A stretch of 64,000 bases of DNA from Tortispora ganteri (Eukaryota). The position numbers and the translations under genes are program-made. Below, one piece after another: positions 123 through 62,728 of the stretch. Location of the stretch: NCBI GenBank assembly GCA_003707115.1, contig PPNB01000001.1, positions 620,001-684,000 on the forward strand. Direction: 5' to 3'. The notes beneath the pieces were generated by a model. The model was given only the letters and a program-made list of their open reading frames with translations. It made no database searches and was not told the origin of the DNA. The first letter of the stretch is position 1; every line of letters starts with the position of its first letter.

Positions 123-1492
123 TTAGTTCTTTTTTTGTTTAACATTCTCTCTTTCATCAATCGCTGCTATTCTCTCTGCTAATATAGGGTGAGAGTAGTT
201 ATAAGCGCTGTAGAGAGGGTCAACATCCATTGCACTTAAGTTCTCGACATGAAGTTTAATCAAAGCATTCTTAAGGTCTTCACTGTAGTTAGCGTCTACT
301 GCGAAGGCATCAGCTTGATACTCGTATTTCCTAGACAAGTGTTTCATAAAAAACTGGAGTAAAGAATCGACAGGCTGAAGAAGATCACCAAAGAGCAAGA
401 AACCGACAAGTGCTGGCTGAGTATTGAAACCAAACGAAGCGTAGAGAGACTTGTTATGAATGAAAGAGGCAAAGAGTACAAAAATTGAGAATAGGTGTGC
501 CTGTCCTATAAGTAGGAGTTTTGTAGTATGAGAGAGAGACCAATGACCTAATTCATGAGCGAGTACCGCAGTTACTTCAGGGACAGTGCTTTGTGCAATG
601 AGAGTGTCATAGATGACGATCTGCTTACTCCAGGGGAGTCCATAGAAGTAGGCATTTGAATGAGTTGAGCGACGCGAGCCATCAATTTCGTAAAGTTTTT
701 TCAAAGGGAAGCTGAACCTAGAAGCGAGCTGTTCAACACTTGACCTGAGTTCGCCTTCTGGAAGAGGAGTAACTTTGTTAAACAAGGGCTGAATAAGGAC
801 CGGGTAGACAGCGTACATGATAACCTGGACGGCGAGCATGAATAGCCAGAGGTAGAAAAAAAAGGCGTCGCCAAAATTTTCAATAATTTTAAGGAACGCA
901 GCTAGCAATGGTACGCCAATGACGGTCAGAAGAAGCAACTGTTTGAGAAAGTCGGTAAAGAAGAGCCAGGGAGTTTGCTTGTTGAAACCAAACTTTTCTT
1001 CGAGAACAAAAGTTGAATATATGGACAGAGGCAAGGAAATTATTGTTGCAAATAATTGAAATAGAAGCGTGAAAACAATAGAAGTGTATATTTCAGTTTT
1101 GTAAGCAAGAGGCAAGATATTGGAGGCCAAAGACCACATGAATGGCAAGACGTCATATTTTACAATTAACAAATTTTGTACCAATCCATAGAGATCGCTA
1201 AAAAAGCCGAAATTGGATTTTGCAATTGAATATTTCTGACTCTTATCAAAAGTTTCCTGTTTAATGACAGATTTGAGTACTTTTGGTGGCTCTTTGCGTT
1301 TCAATACTTGATGCTGTCTGAAATTCAGGAACGTCTCCAGACCATATTTTGCCAGCGTAAAGCCAACAATAACTCCTTTCCAATTAAATCCGGGCCAATC
1401 AAATAATTCTCCAAATGTCTAATAGTTAGTGTATTGTTTAAATTTTTAGCTATTACTACAAGGCAGAAATTGCTTACCTTTATAATATCCAT
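123..1492 (-). CDS. STE24: CAAX prenyl protease 1 (zinc metalloprotease, M48 family); 2 exons: 1492-1478 and 1418-123
   Basis: HELGH zinc motif, DGSRRSTHSNAYFYG and YSHPILAERI motifs, multiple TM helices. Intron 1477-1419 (GTAAGC...CTAAC..TAG) restores the N-terminus MDIIKTFGELFDWPGFNWKG in frame (436 aa). Confidence 0.95.
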
Positions 1493-28019: not shown

Positions 28020-29111
28020 ATGGGTTCTTGCATGTCTTCCCCTAAGGAGGACCAGCCGCGTACCGCTCCTAATGCCCCGATAGCTACTCAACCAAAAGAT
28101 TCTGGCGCTGCCAGCGAACCAGACACCTCAAATGTCACAAAGAAGCTTCCAGAGTACAAAGTACTTCTTCTAGGTACTGGTGAGTCGGGCAAGAGCACTA
28201 TTCTAAAGCAAATGAAAATCCTTCACCAACACGGATACTCTCAAGAGGAACGAGCGCTCTATCGTCCTTCGATATTTAAGAATGTCCTCGATTGCGCCAA
28301 GACGCTGGCAACTGCTATGAAAACCTTTGAAATTGAACCGCAACAACAAGAAGTGGACCTCGATTTTATTTTCGACGCGCAAATCGACGCAGATCCGAAC
28401 ATCCCGCTTGATTCTATACTCGCTAATAAAATAAAACTAATGTGGAATGACCCAGCAATGGCTACGGTTCTCGACCGCAGGAATGAATTCTATCTAATGG
28501 ACTCGGCTGCATATTTCATGGATGCCATAGACAGAATCGCAGATCCGCACTATCTCCCGACGACTGACGATGTTTTGCGTGCAAGAATCAAAACAACAGG
28601 TATTTACGAGTCTAGTTTCGTTACGGGAGACATGATTTTGAAGATGGTTGATGTAGGCGGTCAACGATCTGAGCGTAAAAAGTGGATATCATCTTTCGAA
28701 AATGTCACTTCAGTCATTTTCTGTGTGGCTTTATCGGAATACGATCAGGTCCTGCTAGAAGAGTCTAACCAGAACAGGATGTTTGAGTCATTTGTCCTCT
28801 TCGATTCAGTGATAAACTCTCAATGGTTCACACGTTCTTCCGTTATTCTTTTCCTGAATAAAATCGATGTTTTTACCGAAAAGCTCAAGCGATCTCCGCT
28901 CGAGCACTATTTCCCCGATTACACTGGCGGCGATGATCCAAACCGTGCTGCCAAATACATCCTTTGGCGGTTCACCAGGCTCAACCGATCTAACGTGAGC
29001 ATCTATCCTCATATCACACAGGCGACTGACACAAACAACTTTAGAGTCGTCTTTGCTACCGTTCGTGAAACAATTCTACAAAATGCTCTTAAGGATTCCG
29101 GAATTATATAA
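28020..29111 (+). CDS. GPA2: Heterotrimeric G-protein alpha subunit, fungal class III (cAMP pathway)
   Basis: MGSCMS lipidation start, GTGESGKST, DVGGQRSERKKW, FLNKID, C-terminal ILQNALKDSGII typical of class III. Confidence 0.85.
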   Translation: MGSCMSSPKEDQPRTAPNAPIATQPKDSGAASEPDTSNVTKKLPEYKVLLLGTGESGKSTILKQMKILHQHGYSQEERALYRPSIFKNVLDCAKTLATAMKTFEIEPQQQEVDLDFIFDAQIDADPNIPLDSILANKIKLMWNDPAMATVLDRRNEFYLMDSAAYFMDAIDRIADPHYLPTTDDVLRARIKTTGIYESSFVTGDMILKMVDVGGQRSERKKWISSFENVTSVIFCVALSEYDQVLLEESNQNRMFESFVLFDSVINSQWFTRSSVILFLNKIDVFTEKLKRSPLEHYFPDYTGGDDPNRAAKYILWRFTRLNRSNVSIYPHITQATDTNNFRVVFATVRETILQNALKDSGII

Positions 29112-35161: not shown

Positions 35162-36064
35162 TTATCTGCTTACACGCTCTACCAGGCGAAACACAGATAC
35201 AGTAAACGTCAGGACCCATAGAATCAGCACAACGCATAACATGGCAGATAATCCGCGTTGCCGTTGGCATATCGCGAAGTCATAGCTTGCAGCGAGACCG
35301 GGGATCTCAAGCGACGAGCTGCATACCCAGTCGATATCCAGCATGTTCTCCATCGCCAGCGATAAACTTGCTGCAATAAATATAATAAATAAAAGGTCTA
35401 GCATAATGAGTCTCATCTTAGCTTTCGCTTCTCGCAAACCCAGTGGTTTGCTGGTATACTCATCGTAAGTTATGTATACGAGGTAAAGAACGGCGACAGA
35501 TTGTACAGCTATGCTCATTATCGTAGAAGGCAATTGGTAAACCTGTGGAGTAATGGCTTCGGATCTGCGGAAGATACTGACAGCCAATGCTAGACATGCA
35601 ATCGAGAAGATGAATATCGTCGTTCGTAGCGTCAGTGGTATGAACGGGTTGTTTAGCATTATATGTAGTATTTGCGACTTCGAGAAGAACGTAAATATAA
35701 ACCATTTCTTCTTCTTTCCTGTATCGCTGTTCTCGTAGCCGAATATAGAATTATTTAGGCCGATCCACTCTTTGTCCAGGTCAGGCTGCTGGTGGTCTAG
35801 TTCTTCTTTGGATACGGGATGAATCATGCTTGAAGGTATTTGCGGCCTCGAACGCTGCAGGTACTCATGCCACCGGCTTTTAGCAAGACGCTGACCGGAT
35901 AGTGGTGATAATACATCGTCGTTCATAGGGTATGAGTAGTCTGATTGCGATTGTAGCACATTCACAGGAATAACATTCGCCTTGAAATAGTTCTCTCCTT
36001 CGAGCAGAAACCGTTCATGATGAGCTCGTCGCCGCTCAGACTCTGTTATATCTATAGAGACCAT
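35162..36064 (-). CDS. SRF1: Four-TM regulator of phospholipase D, Srf1-like
   Basis: C-terminal 4-TM block with YITYDEYTSKPLGLR..KMRLIMLDLLFIIF and FRLVERV. Confidence 0.75.
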   Translation of the reverse strand: MVSIDITESERRRAHHERFLLEGENYFKANVIPVNVLQSQSDYSYPMNDDVLSPLSGQRLAKSRWHEYLQRSRPQIPSSMIHPVSKEELDHQQPDLDKEWIGLNNSIFGYENSDTGKKKKWFIFTFFSKSQILHIMLNNPFIPLTLRTTIFIFSIACLALAVSIFRRSEAITPQVYQLPSTIMSIAVQSVAVLYLVYITYDEYTSKPLGLREAKAKMRLIMLDLLFIIFIAASLSLAMENMLDIDWVCSSSLEIPGLAASYDFAICQRQRGLSAMLCVVLILWVLTFTVSVFRLVERVSR

Positions 36065-39707: not shown

Positions 39708-41084
39708 TTACCTCGTAAGTGTCATAAATTCATAAACGTCAGGCTCAATTTCTGGAATATACACATCAACTGGGCTATTAGTTCTTCCTAAGTGGTTCCA
39801 AATATTTGCTTCTTCCTGTAGAGACATTTGTGCATCTAGCTGTTCTAAAAATTCACATTCTTGATTATGCAAGTAATGCGCCGCGCTTTCATCGTCGTCA
39901 TACTCGTCGATAGAATCGTCAGTGTCGGCGTCTTCATCGGATTGACTTGCATCAATATTGTCAGAGTTTATGACCAAGTCATCAGGGTCATTAATATTGA
40001 AATCTCGATCAAAGATATAATTTCCAGTATGCGGATCGTACCACATGCATAACGGTTTTATATTGTCGTCCATCTCCTTAGAAAAACGCGTACGCTTCAT
40101 GTTATCAGCGATATGCCAAGGTCTTTCACGTCGCAAATAAGTTTTACAAACATCAGGAAAAGCCTTACCAGAAAGAGAGTCATCGAGCTCTTTAATATAA
40201 ATTCCTCTGTCTTTCACTGCATTGTGTGCGCGCCACGAGAGGTGTGGTATATTGGGGAGCTGCTTCATCACTTGTTTTACAGATCTAGGGATGCCGACTC
40301 GGGCGAGAGCCAGAGCAACAGCATATTCCGACACGTATCCATCTCCTATAGATTCTGCTGATTTCAAAGACTCGATAACCAAGTCACGCGTGAATCGCAG
40401 AACCAACTTACGGATATATTTCACAGCATCAGCACTAATACCTATCAAATCGTCTTTAGGCTCCTCATACTGTTTTTCTTCAAACACATCAGATGCAATA
40501 ATGCTGGAGTAATCAAAATAAATTAGGGTCGCTATACGGATCAGGTAAGACACGTCGATTAGATCGTTAACTTGAAAGCGTGCTTTCCACAGCCGTAACT
40601 GCTCAAGCTCCGACATTGAGTTTGCCTGTGCCTGCATCTCTTCCAACATAGCGACATGTTTGTATTGTAAATATGTCAATTCATTAGATAAAGTGTCATT
40701 GACAGGACTTTGTGCGTCACCACGTGCAGTAAGATCTTCATTGTCACTCAATGTCGCGCTGATTCGTTCGATTTCCATCACGATCTCCGGCGACATCTCT
40801 GCTGCCGCGGGAATATCCTTGTACGTGATAGAACAATCGGTCAGGCTAAGTGCCTCTTCAAGTATCTCCATATACTCGGATACTTCTTCTACAACCTTTC
40901 CCACCTTCTTAGCCAGTAGGTCAACTCGTCGAGTGCGGCCGAGGTACTTGAAAAACTTGTACTTCTCTTCAGCAGTCCATAGTACTCCATTGATCAATGA
41001 CGTCTCTAGACCCTCTACAGAGTTAGGATCAATTACTTTATCATTAACATCGTCTATCATATCCTGTAACAGATCGTCGTACAT
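39708..41084 (-). CDS. RNA polymerase I upstream activation factor subunit Rrn5-like (Myb-like N-terminus)
   Basis: WTAEEKYKFFKYLGR Myb-like helix, IPAAAEMS, histone-fold-like central region, C-terminal LD...S..EE..IW. Confidence 0.6.
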   Translation of the reverse strand: MYDDLLQDMIDDVNDKVIDPNSVEGLETSLINGVLWTAEEKYKFFKYLGRTRRVDLLAKKVGKVVEEVSEYMEILEEALSLTDCSITYKDIPAAAEMSPEIVMEIERISATLSDNEDLTARGDAQSPVNDTLSNELTYLQYKHVAMLEEMQAQANSMSELEQLRLWKARFQVNDLIDVSYLIRIATLIYFDYSSIIASDVFEEKQYEEPKDDLIGISADAVKYIRKLVLRFTRDLVIESLKSAESIGDGYVSEYAVALALARVGIPRSVKQVMKQLPNIPHLSWRAHNAVKDRGIYIKELDDSLSGKAFPDVCKTYLRRERPWHIADNMKRTRFSKEMDDNIKPLCMWYDPHTGNYIFDRDFNINDPDDLVINSDNIDASQSDEDADTDDSIDEYDDDESAAHYLHNQECEFLEQLDAQMSLQEEANIWNHLGRTNSPVDVYIPEIEPDVYEFMTLTR

Positions 41085-49553: not shown

Positions 49554-50192
49554 ATGAGAACTTCCACTGTCCTTGCTCTTGCTGCTGGCGCTTCTGCCCA
49601 GTTCACCAACGGTACTGCTAGCGTTTTGCCCATTGACCAGTCCACCACTGCCGCTGCGACTACCACTCCTGCTGTTGCTCCCGTAGTTAATGTTAATGTT
49701 GATGTTGACGTAAACGTCGATGTCGACATTGCTGTTACCTTCTTTGGAACTGTCCCTGCTACTATCACTAAGACTGGTGTTTGCACTGATTCTGACATTG
49801 CTACTGTCACTGCTACCACCACCGAAGTTGTATGCTGCGAGACTGACGACACTTGCTCCACCACTGTTGTTCCTTGTGAGACCGTCTACTGCACCGAGTC
49901 TTGCGAGACTGTCACCCCTACCGTTTGGCCTTGTGAAAGCTGCGTTATTGTCACTGTCACTCCCTCATGCTCTACCGTTGTCGTTACTCCTACCGTCACA
50001 TCTACAACCACACTCTGCACCACTGAGGTTCCTGTCACTGTCGTCCCCACCCCTAAGACCAACGATACCACCACTACCCTCTACTACACCACCCACGTTG
50101 AGGTTCCCACTTACACTGCTTTCGCTGGTGCATCCACCGTCTCTTTCAGCGCTGGAATTATCGCTGTCGCTTTTGCTGCTTTCTTCCTTTAA
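49554..50192 (+). CDS. Secreted, probably GPI-anchored Thr/Val/Cys-rich cell-wall protein
   Basis: Signal peptide MRTSTVLALAAGASA, Thr-rich body with spaced Cys, hydrophobic C-terminus GIIAVAFAAFFL; strongly biased codons; TATAAAAA at about 49451. Confidence 0.85.
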   Translation: MRTSTVLALAAGASAQFTNGTASVLPIDQSTTAAATTTPAVAPVVNVNVDVDVNVDVDIAVTFFGTVPATITKTGVCTDSDIATVTATTTEVVCCETDDTCSTTVVPCETVYCTESCETVTPTVWPCESCVIVTVTPSCSTVVVTPTVTSTTTLCTTEVPVTVVPTPKTNDTTTTLYYTTHVEVPTYTAFAGASTVSFSAGIIAVAFAAFFL

Positions 50193-51207: not shown

Positions 51208-51888
51208 ATGATGTTGTTGTTGGCTTTCTTTGCACTATGTGTACTGGCGCTCGGTAAAGTTCCTTCTAATGTTGATATAACAAATTATCCTCATTTGCAA
51301 ATAATGTCTTTCAATAAGGACATTGATGGCAAAGGACTCACTGTGAACCTGGATACCAATAGAATTCAGCCTGTATTGGATCCGCAGCAAAAACCTATCA
51401 GTCTCACTGTTGTTGAGAATATAGGATATTCTAACACAGGATTCTGGTATTTGGATAATGACTTTCTAACCTTGAGCTATGATGAGACCTCTGATGTTTA
51501 TGTGGATTTCTTATATGAGATTTTGCATATAGACGATAGTTCTGGTTTGTATTATTGTCCTTCAACGCACGATATCAGTGCCGCTGAGTCTGATATTTGC
51601 TCAGATGCTATGATTATTACCACAGTTATACCAGATATGAGTGTAACAGATTTGGAAAAGCGTGCAGATAGCGGATGTGAAGATTGTGGTGAATCTGATA
51701 TACAGTCTGCTGTTGGCAATAAGACGTCATATGCTGCAGTTGTTATTGGATCTCTTGCTAAATGTAATCAACATAGTTCAGCAATTGAAATGACTACGAC
51801 ATCTAGTGCGACTGTTTCTAGAGACGTGTCTGGAACTTTGCTGGTTATTGTATCTATATGGGCGGTATTCAGCTGTGTTTTTTTCTAA
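51208..51888 (+). CDS. Secreted/GPI-anchored protein of unknown function
   Basis: Signal peptide MMLLLAFFALCVLALG, internal LEKR dibasic site, Ser/Thr stretch and hydrophobic C-terminus. Confidence 0.7.
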   Translation: MMLLLAFFALCVLALGKVPSNVDITNYPHLQIMSFNKDIDGKGLTVNLDTNRIQPVLDPQQKPISLTVVENIGYSNTGFWYLDNDFLTLSYDETSDVYVDFLYEILHIDDSSGLYYCPSTHDISAAESDICSDAMIITTVIPDMSVTDLEKRADSGCEDCGESDIQSAVGNKTSYAAVVIGSLAKCNQHSSAIEMTTTSSATVSRDVSGTLLVIVSIWAVFSCVFF

Positions 51889-55924: not shown

Positions 55925-56641
55925 TTAGTCGGATTTGTGGTGGCGTTTCTCTTTGGTGGGTTTGGCGTCATCGATCTGATAAAAGGGCACAAAGGAGGCA
56001 AAGAAGCCTACATCTGCAAAGAGGTTTGGCAGGAGCCAGAAGCGCTTACCTGCAATGAGGTAGATCATCGAGAAGAGCACTAGTCTGATAATTGCAAGCG
56101 CGAAAAGGAAAACTAGGAATGCCATTGCACCCATGGACAGGAACCAAGCGCCTCGTCGCATGAATTGTGGCCATAGTGGGAACAAACAGAGGGCGAGAAT
56201 GCCGATGATGACTAGACTCGCATAAAGGTAGCTCGTAGCTTGAACAGGTTCATAAAGCCATATGTAGTATTCGTTATCAGCTATGAGCTGTTGTGCAGGA
56301 GAGACCATCATGACAGGAGATCCATTTTTGGGTACTTTTGACGCCGGTATGACCATCGAATGAGGTTTCATTTTCTCGACGCGCATGGACAGTCTATGTG
56401 TAGGAAGCAATGCAAACACTTTCAGTGCATCTTGTGGCGAATTTACTGGCGGTAGTAGATTATTCTTTGATCGTGCGGCTTTATAGTCTTCACTAACTAG
56501 CGCACGCACAGCTCTCTTTACCCTGTAAATTTCTGATATTTTGTCATTGTAGTTGATAGCTATCCCTGGCCGCTGTTTTAGTTCCGGTCGGCGTCTCAGG
56601 AAATTAGCCACGGCAAGTGCTTGTGGTTTCGTGTCTGCCAT
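55925..56641 (-). CDS. SEC62: Translocon-associated protein Sec62
   Basis: RVKRAVRAL, YYIWLYE, CLFPLWP, two TM helices, FWLLPNLFADVGFFASFVP; ATG at 56641. Confidence 0.9.
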   Translation of the reverse strand: MADTKPQALAVANFLRRRPELKQRPGIAINYNDKISEIYRVKRAVRALVSEDYKAARSKNNLLPPVNSPQDALKVFALLPTHRLSMRVEKMKPHSMVIPASKVPKNGSPVMMVSPAQQLIADNEYYIWLYEPVQATSYLYASLVIIGILALCLFPLWPQFMRRGAWFLSMGAMAFLVFLFALAIIRLVLFSMIYLIAGKRFWLLPNLFADVGFFASFVPFYQIDDAKPTKEKRHHKSD

Positions 56642-56801
56642 TGTTGCCGGGGTTATTTCGTTCCTTTTTATTTGAGCTGATTGTGTTTGTCTCAGTGTGC
56701 GTGTTGTTTTTAAAGGTGTTTGCAAATCTGTGATTGTGAATACCCGCGACCCTCCAAACATTTCGGTGCGCCGCTTTTCCAACCACCTCACATTAACCAG
56801 C

Positions 56802-58415
56802 ATGATCTGGCTCCTACTGGCAGCTATAGTCCTCGCAGAGAGCTTGCTAGACGTTTATTTTGCTAATCCGTTTGATGCTGCTATACAAGCGCAGAGAGAC
56901 GCAGGAATAGGTATCCAAATATCATACGTTTCGTACCCTGGCGTCTCAATGGCCTCCTCCGTGTTTTTCTCAAACGCCGCATCTGCTGACCTCGACGGCC
57001 TTTATACCGTCCAAAACATCAACAACGTATCACGAATAGTTGCTGCTGGATTCACACGCTACGCCATAGATGTTTATTACAACCAGCGTCTCAGTGTATG
57101 GCAACTCTGTCCCATGGACATACCCTCGATAATGCACGAGAATGTCGACCCGAACGATATTCACGATATAAGTCCGCTGTTCCAACTATATCAAGTCTCT
57201 ACTGAAGACGCAGTATACCAATGTCAGCCCTCGGCTACGCTTGCTGCACTCTTTGCTGCCTTGTCTAGAGAAATCACCACACGCGACAACTACGAATCCT
57301 CCGTCATGTTCCACATCGTTCTCAACCTGCACTATGCGCAAACACCTACTAATTACTTCAACGTATCTACCCCGGAGGTTACTGGCACAGTGAATCTGCA
57401 TGATTTCCAGAGAACGATAGGCACACTTGTCACGCGATCTTTCAGGACTACTATCCTTGACGCCTCACTGTACCCAGCATATCCTCAATATCCTACGATG
57501 TATGACATCGTGTTCAACCTCCAGACACCACTTATAGTCTCTTTGAACTCCTCAGATGTTTCTACGGACGCATTTGACCCAAACGACACCTCTAATGCCT
57601 GCATTTTCACTTCTTCTCAGCTCCCACTTACGAACGCCTACGATCTTGCAAACTCGTGTCTCAACGACAACGCAACATATATTTCCCGTCTCAGAGATTC
57701 AACTAATTACGACGCATACAGCTGGCTGTATTTCTCAGACACCAAGGATATTGCCTTAAACGAAACCACCATATCTGCATTAACCGCATGTGGCATATCG
57801 CCGATGCTTACACAGCCTCAGAATGACCTCTACGATATACTCAAATATAACAACAGTATTTTTTGGTCCTGGAAACCCAGAAATGCAACGCTATACACTG
57901 CAAGTGATAATGCACGCTGCGCCGCTGCAACACCTGAAGGATGGGTTGTTTTGCCGTGTGACACGCCTCTCCCGGTCTGCTGTCGCACAAGCACAGATAA
58001 TAGTCGCTTGGTTGCAAGTGAATGGTTGTTATCCACCACTAATTATGACTATGAGAATGCTTACTGCTCTACAGGTTCTTTTAGCGCGCCAGTAACATCA
58101 TATGACTATATGTACTTGCGAAGTGTTCTGAAGGAGGCTGGCCTTAACACACGGGCATGGATCATGTTGAACGCTGTTGACGAAAAAAACTGCTGGGTAA
58201 TCGGTTCCATAGATAAGCCCTGTCCCTATGTTGATATCTCAAGCCTGTCCATCACACTCACATACCTCATTCTCAGCATTATATTCATATGCTTTGTGCT
58301 ATATTGGATCCTCTACTCCCGCTGCGTTAGCTATCGGGCGCTGCGTGCTCACCGATCTAGATACAGACTGATAAAAGATTTTCACAAGACCGATTTCGAC
58401 GGCGTGCCAATCTAA
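56802..58415 (+). CDS. MTC6: Mtc6-like type I membrane protein (PLC-like domain plus lectin-like Cys domain)
   Basis: Signal peptide, QRD...., WQLCP, CGISP, WSW, C-terminal TM helix and terminal DGVPI; ATG at 56802. Confidence 0.72.
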   Translation: MIWLLLAAIVLAESLLDVYFANPFDAAIQAQRDAGIGIQISYVSYPGVSMASSVFFSNAASADLDGLYTVQNINNVSRIVAAGFTRYAIDVYYNQRLSVWQLCPMDIPSIMHENVDPNDIHDISPLFQLYQVSTEDAVYQCQPSATLAALFAALSREITTRDNYESSVMFHIVLNLHYAQTPTNYFNVSTPEVTGTVNLHDFQRTIGTLVTRSFRTTILDASLYPAYPQYPTMYDIVFNLQTPLIVSLNSSDVSTDAFDPNDTSNACIFTSSQLPLTNAYDLANSCLNDNATYISRLRDSTNYDAYSWLYFSDTKDIALNETTISALTACGISPMLTQPQNDLYDILKYNNSIFWSWKPRNATLYTASDNARCAAATPEGWVVLPCDTPLPVCCRTSTDNSRLVASEWLLSTTNYDYENAYCSTGSFSAPVTSYDYMYLRSVLKEAGLNTRAWIMLNAVDEKNCWVIGSIDKPCPYVDISSLSITLTYLILSIIFICFVLYWILYSRCVSYRALRAHRSRYRLIKDFHKTDFDGVPI

Positions 58416-58540
58416 CTGTATCCTCTTAACTCTTAATAGAGCGCCAACGCATGCAAGTTTGGCCAATGGATATTCGGTGCCGAAGCCGAATATGGTCGCG
58501 AATTACGCTTCTCGGACAAATACAGATCCAACCTTGCATA

Positions 58541-58987
58541 GTCATTGACGTATCATTGTCCTCGCTTTCTCTATGTACAAACTTCTTTGAAACGTGGAAA
58601 CTATGACCCCCCTATTTGCATTCGACTGTATTCTTTAAACCTTATTAAAGTTTCTCTCGACTCCGCTTTCTTTGAAATCTCGTTGTGAACCAAAGTGTCA
58701 TTGTTCAGGTGTCATTGTTCGTTCTTTATTCCAGCCAATTAGACTGTTGAACTAATCGGAGCTGCAGCTGAAAGTTCATTATCTTGAACTATAATATTTT
58801 TATTCTTTTATTAGATTAAGAGTGTCATTGTCAGTTTCCTTATGTGTCAATTTTTCTATTGAACCTTCTCAACAATGACCCTTCTTGGTGTGCTGATTGG
58901 TCTGGTGAGCTTCAAAGAAACCACCCCGAGCGAGCAGTTTTCATTGACCGAAAATAATATAAATAGATGTCGATATCCCATGTTTCA
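58541..58987 (+). promoter_or_regulatory. Promoter of pheromone gene copy 1: clustered TCATTGT (HMG-box) sites, PRE-like sites and TATA
   Basis: GTATCATTGTC 58550, GTGTCATTGTTC at 58695 and 58709, GTGTCATTGTC 58822, AACAATGAC 58871; TGAAACG 58588; TATAAATA 58958. Confidence 0.75.
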
Positions 58988-59028
58988 AATCATCAATCAA
59001 CATCGAACAATCAACTCATCAACTAACA

Positions 59029-59133
59029 ATGGAATCAATCACTTTCAACATCAAGCCCACCACCACTTCTGCTGCCCCTGCTGAGGTCTCTGCCCCCAAG
59101 AACGAGGGGTATGCCTATTGCAACATCATGTAA
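59029..59133 (+). CDS. a-factor-class lipopeptide pheromone precursor, copy 1 (34 aa, CAAX = CNIM)
   Basis: MESITFNIKPTTTSAAPAEVSAPKNEGYAYCNIM*; good start context (AACAATGG), upstream TATA box, duplicated with only synonymous changes. Confidence 0.88.
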   Translation: MESITFNIKPTTTSAAPAEVSAPKNEGYAYCNIM

Positions 59134-59959
59134 GCTATGCTTATATACAGTCTTTTCTTTATTTAGAGGCTCTGACTGCTCCTTTGATGCGTGAGATGAA
59201 TCAGTTATTTCTTTTTCACTGCAATCTTACCTTGGTTACATGTTCATCATAAGCTACAGTCATACTCGTTATTTATACAATATTTGCCGGCAAAAATGTA
59301 AAAATGTGTAGTCGTTAGTTTGTAGAGTTAATCATACTATAGAAAAGAATACGTAAGTCCAGGCTGCGCCCATTTATCCTGAAAACAGTCGGAGAAAGCA
59401 CGTACTGCATGCGAGATACATAAAAACATTTAGCACAGGGCGAACTAGTGAAGAAAATAATAAATGAACTTATCTTAAACACAAATATCGTGCCAATCGC
59501 GTGTGTACAGATAAATTGTGTAATTTCTGTAGCAAAAAATTTAGTCAGGCCAATGTGAAACACACCACAAACACATGTTTGGTGCATTTGTTTTCATTCG
59601 ATTCCTAGCAAGCAACTTTTAGCTTTTAAAATTATATAATAACCGTATAAAAACCTCATCGGTTCATATAGATGTTATCAGTGAGATGCAAAATTACCTT
59701 ATGGTCAGTGCAACCATCCACCTAGCGCTAACAAAATTCGTCATCGAAGACGACGAAAAGCCTTTAACTTAAAACCACCTGCATCAATCCGAATATTAAC
59801 AAAAGTCTGCCAAAAAGTGTATCCAATAGCATCGAAAATAAAATAAACGTGATATAATCACATCAGGTTCAGAGCATGCACTATCTTTCGTTCAAACTTG
59901 GCGATGGAGGAATGTGATCAGCGAATAGTTAAGTATCCCTCGACAACTCTTTGGAAAAG

Positions 59960-60213
59960 AAACAATAGACTGTGATACTATGAGGAGGTATCATTGTTTC
60001 CATCAAATAATTTATATTGAAAGGAACCACCAAATCATTAGACTTTCTAAAGGATCATTGTCAGCTTCCTATTCAGGTTAATGTAGCTGATAAGCTTCCA
60101 CACAATGACACTTTAGAGCAACATGATTGGAGTAGCATTTCAAAAGAACTACGCTAGAATCGTTGAAACGAGAAACCAGACGAATATAAATACATGTCAT
60201 TTTCTCCGTTTCA
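59960..60213 (+). promoter_or_regulatory. Promoter of pheromone gene copy 2: TCATTGT sites, Mcm1-like box, PRE-like sites and TATA
   Basis: AAACAATAG 59960, GTATCATTGTTTCC 59988, TCATTGTC 60055 followed by CCTATTCAGG 60068-60077, ACAATGACAC 60102, TGAAACG 60164, TATAAATA 60185. Confidence 0.75.
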
Positions 60214-60258
60214 TAATCATCAAACAATTAACTCGATCAATCAACTCATCAACTAGCA

Positions 60259-60363
60259 ATGGAATCAATCACTTTCAACATCAAGCCCACCACCACCTCT
60301 GCTGCTCCTGCTGAAGTTTCGGCTCCCAAGAATGAGGGATACGCCTATTGCAACATCATGTAA
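60259..60363 (+). CDS. a-factor-class lipopeptide pheromone precursor, copy 2 (identical 34-aa product)
   Basis: Same peptide as 59029-59133; 9 nucleotide differences, all synonymous third-position changes. Confidence 0.88.
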   Translation: MESITFNIKPTTTSAAPAEVSAPKNEGYAYCNIM

Positions 60364-60581
60364 GTTGCATTCAAATTCTCTTTCTCAATCTTTCCTGTAT
60401 CATGGTTGCGACTCCTGTCATGTAAGGTTCATCAAACATTCGGATGTATGTTTTGATTCATTTTCTATGGTAGGTTCTCACAAAATCAGGTGCAGTTGAG
60501 ACAAATATTTATACTCTTGCCGGCAAAAAAACCGTTAATTCGTAACACTCGTAAGCCATATAATTAGTAAAGTAGAAGGCA

Positions 60582-62246
60582 TTAGGCGGAGACAGAATTA
60601 CCCAATTGCATTTTTAACTTTGATATTTCATTATCTAATTCTGCTCCATTTTGTTCTAGCGCTGCAATCGCATCAAACTGCCTGCTTTTGCGAGCATTGT
60701 CAATCATTTCTTTTACCATGAATTTCTGCTCTTCTAGAACAATTAGCTTCTGACGAAGTGAAACGACATCCTCTTCTGACAGACCTGGTTCTGGAGAGGC
60801 AGTTGATGATGCACGCTGAGATGAGAAAGTTTTGGGAAGGTTCTGCAGAGGAAGCATATGAGTTTGCAAGAATGAGACAGATTGAGTGTAGATAGATTTC
60901 TGGAGTTTTTTTTGTGCTTCTGATTGGGTAGGAAAGTTCAGAATTCGTTTAGCTGCAATATCGTATTGAGTGAAGGAATCCAAAAGCTTTTGCCGGATTT
61001 TCTTTGCTTCATATAACTGTTCTTTATTAGGCGGTGCTGACTCATCAGACAAAGCTTCTAATAACTTTTCAAATCGTGGAAGGGTATCTGTGATGCCCAC
61101 TTGAAATTGCGTAAGAACCATATATGCACGAAGAAATGGAGAGTCTGTAGTAGATTTTTTTCGAGAAGAGGCACGGGAATTGAGGACCATGCGACATCTT
61201 TTGCACATGCGCACTGATACCGTTTTTGGATCATTTTTTTCAGTTGCAGCTTCAGGAACTATTTGTATATCTATATCAATGGAACAATTTGTTGCTGGGT
61301 CTGAGCAGACAACTTGCCCACACAGGCGACAATGATGCTTTCGCAAAGATATGGAGAAGTTCCTTGAGCAGTATCTGCAAACAGTTATATCTTGATCTTT
61401 TTCCCAAGGCACAACAGATTGTTCAATTTCATGGACCTTATTGCTATAAGTCAGTCGGGCATAGAATGGCGGTTTGGAAGGTAGTACCGACATACTTTCG
61501 ACATATCGAGTCAGTCTATTTTCCAACCTATTTGCTTCTAAACGTTTTGAAGCAATAACGGTTGCCCGTAGCTTGGAGAATGCAGAAGTAAGAGATTTCT
61601 GTGCGCCTGTAGTGTCCATGTATCCAGGACGAGAAGTGTAACAAAGTTCGCATACTGTAGACCATATTCCGTTTTCTGGGTCATGTGTGGCATCCTGTGC
61701 AAGCCTCATGCTAAACTGGAGATGGTTTGTACAGTAAAAATTACCGCAACAGGCACAGTTCCCGAAGGGGGAGCGAATTGACATTTTCTTATTACATGAA
61801 GGTTGAGAGCATTTCTCTTTATCAGAGGGCAATTTCCAATGGGCACGAGTAACTTCAGGGGCAGGTGAAGGAGTTCGCGTGTCATCGGTGCTACTGGCCG
61901 GACTGTCGTCGAAGATATCAAGTTTACTTAGACGATTGAGGGCAGCAACAGTTGGTAGCTGGCGGGCTTTAGCCACACTCTTTTTGAGCCAGTTAGGTTT
62001 TGCACTGGAAGGTACGTCAGTATGGGCATCGTCCAGGTGTCTGTTGAGTTGTGCAAGAGAGACCATCTCTTTATTACATATGGGACATATGAATCGTTCA
62101 ATTTCGTTAATTGTGGATGTTTCGGAGGATAACAGCGATTCCGACGATGGTGACACAGCATCCACAAGATGAGAATTAGCTGTCAAAGTATCCTTATACG
62201 GATTTTCAGGCTTGCCGAGCACCCGCCGAGGTTTTGGGCGGTCCAT
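60582..62246 (-). CDS. PEP7: Rabenosyn-5/Vac1 endosomal effector (C2H2 plus two FYVE-type fingers)
   Basis: CPICNKEMVSLAQLNRHLDDAH, RKHHCRLCG FYVE, LIVLEEQKFMV Rab-binding helix; ATG at 62246. Confidence 0.88.
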   Translation of the reverse strand: MDRPKPRRVLGKPENPYKDTLTANSHLVDAVSPSSESLLSSETSTINEIERFICPICNKEMVSLAQLNRHLDDAHTDVPSSAKPNWLKKSVAKARQLPTVAALNRLSKLDIFDDSPASSTDDTRTPSPAPEVTRAHWKLPSDKEKCSQPSCNKKMSIRSPFGNCACCGNFYCTNHLQFSMRLAQDATHDPENGIWSTVCELCYTSRPGYMDTTGAQKSLTSAFSKLRATVIASKRLEANRLENRLTRYVESMSVLPSKPPFYARLTYSNKVHEIEQSVVPWEKDQDITVCRYCSRNFSISLRKHHCRLCGQVVCSDPATNCSIDIDIQIVPEAATEKNDPKTVSVRMCKRCRMVLNSRASSRKKSTTDSPFLRAYMVLTQFQVGITDTLPRFEKLLEALSDESAPPNKEQLYEAKKIRQKLLDSFTQYDIAAKRILNFPTQSEAQKKLQKSIYTQSVSFLQTHMLPLQNLPKTFSSQRASSTASPEPGLSEEDVVSLRQKLIVLEEQKFMVKEMIDNARKSRQFDAIAALEQNGAELDNEISKLKMQLGNSVSA

Positions 62247-62728
62247 TGTCGGTAAAGGCTCAATTATAAGAGAGAAGTGTAATGTGAGGGTATGGCGACA
62301 CAACCTGCGGATGTAAAGAAGCCGAGAAATCGAGTAAATCAAGCGCGGTACGTACAAATACAAAACGTCCGGCTATATATGGACCGCCTCCTCCCCGATA
62401 TACGGTATTTTGGGCTATTGGTGGGTTGCAGCCCCTTTAGCAGTGGGGTTGACTACTTCTAGGTGTACACAGACGGTGCAACGTCCCAGAGCCAGAACTA
62501 GTATATGGAGCCATTATAATCCAAAGTGCCAGTTCTTGATCGAAAACGAAGCCTGTAAGAGCTCAATTTTGAATCTAAAGACACTAATAGACGTTGTTAA
62601 ATTTCGACGTTTTATAAGAAAACGTTGTAAAATAAACAACTTCGTTTGAATTTTAGTATCCAATTGTTCACAAAGCCGTACATTCCCTCTGTGGAAGCTA
62701 AACTTTTGTCTTACAACTACAACATCCC

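Follow-up and report, generated by a model that had tools for sequence, protein, structure and literature searches.

The M-factor of Schizosaccharomyces pombe is a nonamer, and the a-specific genes of Saccharomyces cerevisiae are controlled through an alpha2-Mcm1 operator. In S. cerevisiae, a-factor is encoded by two redundant genes, Mfa1 and Mfa2, and the CaaX box of the precursor is farnesylated, trimmed of its AAX residues and methylated (PMC2148179). The Mfa1 precursor is described as a 21-residue N-terminal extension, a 12-residue mature part and a CAAX box, with a Ste24 cut between T7 and A8 and an Axl1/Ste23 cut between N21 and Y22 (PMC2148179). The M-factor genes of S. pombe, mfm1-3, are preceded, as are other M-specific genes, by the M-box ACAATG/A, which is bound by the high-mobility-group (HMG) protein Mat1-Mc and lies at about -150 to -190 (PMC1693924); M-factor genes can also contain introns (10.1101/2021.09.28.462209). 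In Yarrowia lipolytica, which is also an early-branching budding yeast, the genes MFA1-4 were validated by quadruple deletion (10.1101/2021.09.28.462209). Here, we describe a tandem pair of 34-codon open reading frames (ORFs) from Tortispora ganteri, found in a stretch of 64,000 nucleotides (nt) of contig PPNB01000001.1 (assembly GCA_003707115.1, positions 620,001 to 684,000, forward strand), referred to as the window. The two genes probably encode a mating pheromone precursor of the a-factor/M-factor class, whose product would be a farnesylated lipopeptide. We favor this reading because the frame is under selection, the product is small and lacks a leader, its C-terminal CNIM is predicted to be prenylated and cleaved, an Asn lies near the Cys, two copies are present, and HMG/M-box-type sites lie upstream.

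The pair resembles Mfa1 and Mfa2 in several respects: two genes would each encode a short precursor without a signal peptide, with a C-terminal CaaX box and an Asn before the Cys. The apparent likeness to the Ste24 site of Mfa1 lies in a short, low-complexity stretch rich in Thr, Ser, Ala and Pro. In contrast to Mfa1 and Mfa2, the peptide has no detectable homology to them and ends in CNIM rather than CVIA, and the product from Asn to Cys would have 6 residues starting with Glu rather than 12 starting with Tyr. The Tortispora genes also lie in tandem between MTC6 and PEP7, and their promoter holds HMG-type words. As with mfm1-3, the genes are multi-copy and have ACAATGA words, here at -157 and -204, to be compared with about -150 to -190 for the M-box (PMC1693924). 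The peptides are unrelated in sequence to the farnesylated product of mfm1-3. Near -118 lies a stretch that both copies conserve; its copy 1 version, TTCAAAGAAAC, holds, by eye, only the CAAAG core of the S. pombe Ste11 box AACAAAG; no dedicated search for this box was made. The pair was found in the same way as Yarrowia MFA1-4, through a short ORF, a CaaX box, an Asn, several copies and variation in the mature part that is only synonymous (10.1101/2021.09.28.462209). For Yarrowia, that source describes copies that number 4 to 14, are dispersed and vary in their N-terminal extensions, whereas the two Tortispora copies are adjacent, are fully identical over the precursor and are described at the sequence level only. 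The basidiomycete lipopeptide pheromones (PF08015) share with the pair the short CaaX precursor.

Both ORFs translate to MESITFNIKPTTTSAAPAEVSAPKNEGYAYCNIM*. The two copies differ at nine bases, in codons 13, 16, 19, 20, 21, 22, 25, 27 and 28, and all nine differences fall at codon position 3 and are synonymous. With 23.0 synonymous and 79.0 nonsynonymous sites in the pair, the probability that nine of nine differences are synonymous by chance is about 1.5e-6, and that of finding all nine at codon position 3 is 5e-5. When nine substitutions were placed at random, the peptide was left unchanged in 0 of 200,000 simulated sets. Identity was measured without gaps in 20-bp bins, since the mean column identity of 74% in a full MAFFT alignment overstates the likeness of the flanks through gap placement. 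In bins anchored at the ATG, identity was 0.85-1.0 over the ORF and positions -20 to -1, but 0.2-0.55 at -120 to -21, and it was 0.05-0.4 at 15 to 135 bp past the stop codon. Because all differences are synonymous third-position changes while the flanks have decayed, the 34-codon frame is, on this substitution pattern, translated and under strong purifying selection. Synonymous divergence is large (proportion of synonymous differences pS = 0.39; Jukes-Cantor synonymous divergence dS about 0.55; nonsynonymous divergence dN = 0 over 79 sites) and, therefore, the duplication is old, with which the decay of the flanks agrees. The original prediction had reported one peptide from both ORFs, synonymous changes in exactly these codons, diverged flanking DNA, and MTC6 and PEP7 as neighbors. 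Each of these observations was reproduced, the neighbors being an MTC6-family gene and a PEP7-like gene with FYVE and Rabenosyn domains.

A repeat finder returned the pair as a 132-nt repeat (59003-59134 and 60233-60364) with 92% identity and a spacing of 1230 bp. A C-x-x-x end alone is not rare, as 16 of the 437 Met-to-stop ORFs of 20-100 residues within the window have a Cys at -4. What is beyond chance is the identical, duplicated and synonymously diverged pair rather than the C-x-x-x end. Contigs of two DNA runs (X1 and X2) cover all of 56800-62300 and were compared with the window, and six single-letter differences were found in these 5.5 kb, none inside either ORF; two other runs (X5 and X6) gave no coverage here. 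Since X1 and X2 agree in the lengths and depths of their contigs, they may be duplicate filings of a single data set. The differences lie at 56912, 57230, 59144, 61296, 61385 and 61541; the one at 61296 was seen in X2 only, and the one at 59144 is 11 nt past the stop of copy 1. A 40-letter contig over 59027-59066 had a depth of 175.5, compared to 77.6-88.3 in the flanking contigs, which suggests two genome copies of this word, with depth not being a copy number in itself.

The features of the locus are listed in Table 1. No earlier ATG opens either frame, and the upstream in-frame stop is 22 codons away in copy 1 and 9 codons away in copy 2. Past the stop, the sole element common to both copies is a 27-nt AT-rich and palindromic block, in which TATTTATAC precedes the 13-mer TTGCCGGCAAAAA (59284-59296 and 60517-60529), which holds the palindrome TTGCCGGCAA. 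This block is presumed to be a signal for 3'-end formation; alternatively, it could be a factor binding site. Because the frame is intact, promoter, leader and downstream elements are kept, and no second conserved exon was seen, each copy is, by its layout, a small but complete gene unit of about 0.6 kb. The contrary explanation is that splicing joins each 34-codon ORF, as a first exon, to further exons of a longer gene in which CNIM is not the C-terminus. GTAAGC and GTAAGT lie over the stop codon at 59130 and 60360 and would be possible 5' splice sites, introns occur in yeasts of this part of the tree, and Y. lipolytica is described as having an intron-containing pheromone copy (10.1101/2021.09.28.462209). 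However, GTAAG follows automatically from ATG-TAA and one further base, identity is lost directly past the stop without a conserved second exon, and a branch-point-like word follows copy 1 only. A spliced gene is thus very improbable in our estimation.

Two further ORFs in the +2 frame (58875-59084, 69 residues; 60123-60314, 63 residues; + strand) overlap the 5' part of the peptide ORFs and were rejected as by-products. They also end in C-x-x-x (CCPC and CCSC), with residues that differ between the copies (HHHFCCPC and HHHLCCSC) and are unrelated further upstream. Such ORFs would be false positives in any screen for CaaX ORFs.

Table 1. Features of the tandem pair and of its surroundings in the window (distances are relative to the ATG unless stated otherwise)
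Feature	Position	Strand	Remark
ORF, copy 1	59029-59133	+	34 residues and stop; C-terminal CNIM
ORF, copy 2	60259-60363	+	same 34-residue peptide as copy 1; 9 synonymous differences
Leader block, copy 1	59008-59025	+	18 nt (-21 to -4), identical in both copies; presumed 5' leader
Leader block, copy 2	60238-60255	+	18 nt (-21 to -4), identical in both copies; presumed 5' leader
TATAAATA (TATA) box, copy 1	58958-58965	+	71 bp 5' of ATG
TATAAATA (TATA) box, copy 2	60185-60192	+	74 bp 5' of ATG
CCAAT-like box, copy 1	58894-58900	-	at -135; TGATTGG on + strand
CCAAT-like box, copy 2	60124-60130	-	at -135, same distance as copy 1
HMG/M-box-type cluster, copy 1	58553-58878	+	TCATTGT at 58553, 58698, 58712, 58825; ACAATGA at 58872
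HMG/M-box-type cluster, copy 2	59991-60108	+	TCATTGT at 59991, 60055; ACAATGA at 60102
Downstream block TATTTATAC...TTGCCGGCAAAAA, copy 1	59270-59296	+	137-163 nt past stop
Downstream block TATTTATAC...TTGCCGGCAAAAA, copy 2	60506-60529	+	143-166 nt past stop
MTC6-family gene (PF25506)	56802-58415	+	upstream neighbor
FYVE + Rabenosyn-domain gene, PEP7/VAC1 type	60582-62246	-	downstream neighbor
Sec62	55925-56803	-	
Ste24-type CaaX prenyl protease	123-1418	-	Peptidase_M48_N + Peptidase_M48; HELGH motif
G-protein alpha subunit gene	28020-29111	+	PF00503, E = 3.6e-120

In Candida, the MATa2 word is CATTGTC beside an Mcm1 half-site. For a-specific genes, the ancestral control in budding yeasts is described as activation, in which the HMG protein MATa2 binds every such gene (10.1101/565234). 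The words TCATTGT/ACAATGA occurred 19 times in the window, 10 of them intergenic, and 8 of these 10 lay upstream of the two ORFs. Nowhere else in the window did a 329-bp stretch hold three or more such words (Poisson P about 1.4e-4 per stretch). Two sites are at the same distance from the ATG in both copies, at -204 (+) and -157 (-), and the -204 site lies inside a conserved 16-mer, TCATTGTCAG[T/C]TTCCT. The site at 58825 runs on as TCATTGTCAGTTTCCT and that at 60055 as TCATTGTCAGCTTCCT. TGAAACA, named as the Ste12 pheromone response element (10.1101/2021.09.28.462209), was found once, on the minus strand at 58981 (-47 of copy 1). Copy 2 has TGAAAC cores at 60164 (+, -95) and 60208 (-, -51); such words are common (0.8 per kb) and were given little weight. 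The scan for sigma-70 promoters and intrinsic terminators uses a bacterial model, which is irrelevant to yeast.

The peptide itself has the properties of a short precursor. At 34 residues, it falls within the size of such precursors (<100 residues, typically 30-45), and no hydrophobic leader was found (highest 9-residue Kyte-Doolittle mean 0.52; grand average of hydropathy -0.18; isoelectric point 4.8). CNIM is listed in a supplementary table of Berger et al. 2022 as prenylated by three of four methods, namely SVM-ESM-1b, PrePS and a frequency model, and as AAX-cleaved by both of two cleavage models, all predictors being trained on S. cerevisiae (PMC9231725). These predictions correspond to the canonical route, in which farnesylation is followed by trimming and methylation. 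Srikant, Gaudet and Murray state as a criterion for candidates an Asn 5-20 residues before the Cys (10.1101/2021.09.28.462209), and a cut after Asn25 would leave EGYAYC, a product of 6 residues from Asn to Cys. They also curated candidates by identity of the peptide across copies (10.1101/2021.09.28.462209), and here the same peptide comes from two copies 1230 bp apart.

By analogy with the known Asn cuts, S-farnesylated and O-methylated EGYAYC may be put forward as the mature product, but only tentatively, and a longer mature product is equally possible. To our knowledge, no characterized fungal lipopeptide pheromone is as short as EGYAYC. A further version holds that this farnesylated and methylated hexapeptide is mature, that its N-terminus is acidic and arises from cleavage between Asn and Glu, which Axl1/Ste23-type proteases are not known to prefer, and that the fully conserved 25-residue extension would have a function of its own, such as stabilization or targeting, rather than being a disposable spacer. 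We consider this version unlikely.

Several observations weigh against a pheromone precursor. The first group concerns the processing sites: position a1 of the CaaX box is taken by Asn, which is polar, CNIM is negative in the FlexPepBind column of the same supplementary source (PMC9231725), and Asn25 is followed by the charged residue Glu, while the residue after Asn in known sites is stated to be aromatic or uncharged (10.1101/2021.09.28.462209). Second, the entire precursor is identical between the copies, the C-terminal part and the extension alike. Third, the a2/Mcm1 reading of the promoter word is tentative and was drawn from the promoters of this pair. Fourth, no homolog was detected: a search of Pfam with the peptide gave no family at E up to 0.01 or up to 10, including PF08015, and phmmer gave no match at E up to 0.001 among 1,835,955,588 representative proteins. 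Finally, the synonymous differences are confined to codons 13-28, where 9 of 16 degenerate codons differ, while none of the 16 degenerate codons among 1-12 and 29-34 does (Fisher p = 0.0008).

This clustering leaves the ORF ends identical between the copies, over 38 nt counted from the ATG and over 21 nt leading up to the stop. The leader block is identical as well, and the two observations point to gene conversion in short tracts at both ends or to constraint at the nucleotide level, for example on start context, codon choice or mRNA structure. A non-coding duplicated element, whether a promoter, a noncoding RNA or the relic of a segmental duplication, could have been kept alike by gene conversion with the ORF being accidental, and the identical ends and leader and the clustered differences could then be its conversion tracts. 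Conversion would leave the nine of nine synonymous third-position differences unexplained, though, at the two probabilities given above. A tRNA scan of the region found none, and the best hit of an Rfam scan of the region was at chance level (E = 0.74; 15.7 bits against a gathering score of 127). We therefore give a non-coding element the slightest chance of all the explanations considered. The inference of a coding frame is not weakened by the clustering because conversion cannot make the surviving differences synonymous.

The failure to detect homologs is expected for lipopeptide pheromones, because their homology is stated to be undetectable beyond about 100 million years (10.1101/2021.09.28.462209), and yet it adds no support. 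Not even the peptide itself was matched and, thus, gene calling for the representative protein sets seems always to have passed it over. Also, the pair differs from the basidiomycete pheromones of PF08015 in giving no Pfam match and in a language-model score within the range of chance. The sole language-model neighbor listed was a cluster of 34-residue proteins with PF08015 (fungal pheromone) in 22% of its 134 members, at a score of 0.80, which is also attained in one third of cases by shuffled proteins. A metagenome scan with a degenerate EGYAYCNIM-stop pattern gave no matches, and one with the MTC6 neighbor as query gave 106 pattern matches, none of which was confirmed by tblastn.

Words from the peptide were not found in the searchable literature, in which Tortispora and pheromone together led to work on the MAT locus only (PMC6692504). 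Srikant et al. screened 332 Saccharomycotina genomes for this signature and reported 792 candidates from 238 species (10.1101/2021.09.28.462209). The main text of that study, as distinct from its candidate table, names no Tortispora, Trigonops- or Lipomyc- (10.1101/2021.09.28.462209). The ORF pair passes the length, Asn and copy filters stated there and may already be in the candidate list. The suggestion in the original prediction that the pheromone is undescribed thus held for the protein sets and the searchable text, but the published screen may list it.

Another explanation, which we regard as improbable but less so than a spliced gene, is that the pair encodes a small prenylated peptide or protein without a role in mating, such as a membrane-anchored regulatory micropeptide. 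Neither the selection on the frame nor the predicted prenylation of its motif says anything about function, and the peptide has no homology to known pheromones in Pfam or by phmmer. On the other hand, fungal multi-copy CaaX precursors of 30-45 residues in which an Asn lies close to the Cys are not known, with essentially no exception, outside the pheromones, and the clustered M-box/HMG-type promoter words fit mating-type control. The a-factor-class reading stood at the level of the class, where it is the best explanation and all indirect tests agree with it; its more tentative parts are the likeness to the Ste24 site, the hexapeptide end point and expression specific to one mating type, and the Asn-Glu junction falls outside the stated rule for Asn sites.

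If the pair encodes such a pheromone precursor, the two small tandem genes would be transcribed independently and specifically in a cells, driven by an HMG-domain MATa2 activator through the clustered ACAATGA sites. The Cys of CNIM would be farnesylated, NIM would be removed by a Ste24/Rce1-type protease, the new C-terminus would be methylated, and the N-terminal extension would be trimmed. The lipopeptide would then be exported through a Ste6-type ABC exporter, and cells of the opposite mating type would sense it with a Ste3-type receptor. A two-pheromone system is expected because Tortispora species are described as heterothallic, carrying either MATa or MATalpha genes (PMC6692504).

The surroundings of the pair were also annotated. 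The best database match of Sec62 was Tortispora caseinolytica NRRL Y-17796, with 226 of 238 residues identical (95%) and real substitutions, followed by Yarrowia at 45%; the Sec62 ORF starts here 54 codons 5' of the start annotated in T. caseinolytica. By this match, the window belongs to a Tortispora that is near to, yet distinct from, NRRL Y-17796, either a sister species or a divergent strain. The Ste24-type gene has 431 open codons but 338 residues from its first ATG, and positions 1-60 of the profile were unmatched, so its start may be wrongly placed or belong to an exon further upstream. About 58 kb separate this gene from the pheromone-like pair, and the linkage is probably a coincidence. 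Likewise, the linkage of the G-alpha gene to the pair was given no weight. Four ORFs of 212-458 residues, at 35162-36064 (-), 39708-41084 (-), 49554-50192 (+) and 51208-51888 (+), matched no Pfam family at E up to 0.1.

Because lipopeptide pheromone genes are so short and evolve so rapidly, homology searches miss them, and they are unannotated in most yeast genomes. Genes of this kind, and the way to discover them, are well established, and the gain made here is incremental. If the reading is true, the Trigonopsidaceae, among the earliest branches of the budding yeasts, would gain a data point on the co-evolution of pheromone, Ste6 and Ste3, and another would be added on the minimum size of a functional lipopeptide signal. 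The pair would also bear on how far back the ancestral control of a-specific genes by HMG proteins (MATa2/Mc-type) extends, namely whether it includes the Trigonopsidaceae, and it would provide a handle for laboratory crosses of Tortispora strains.

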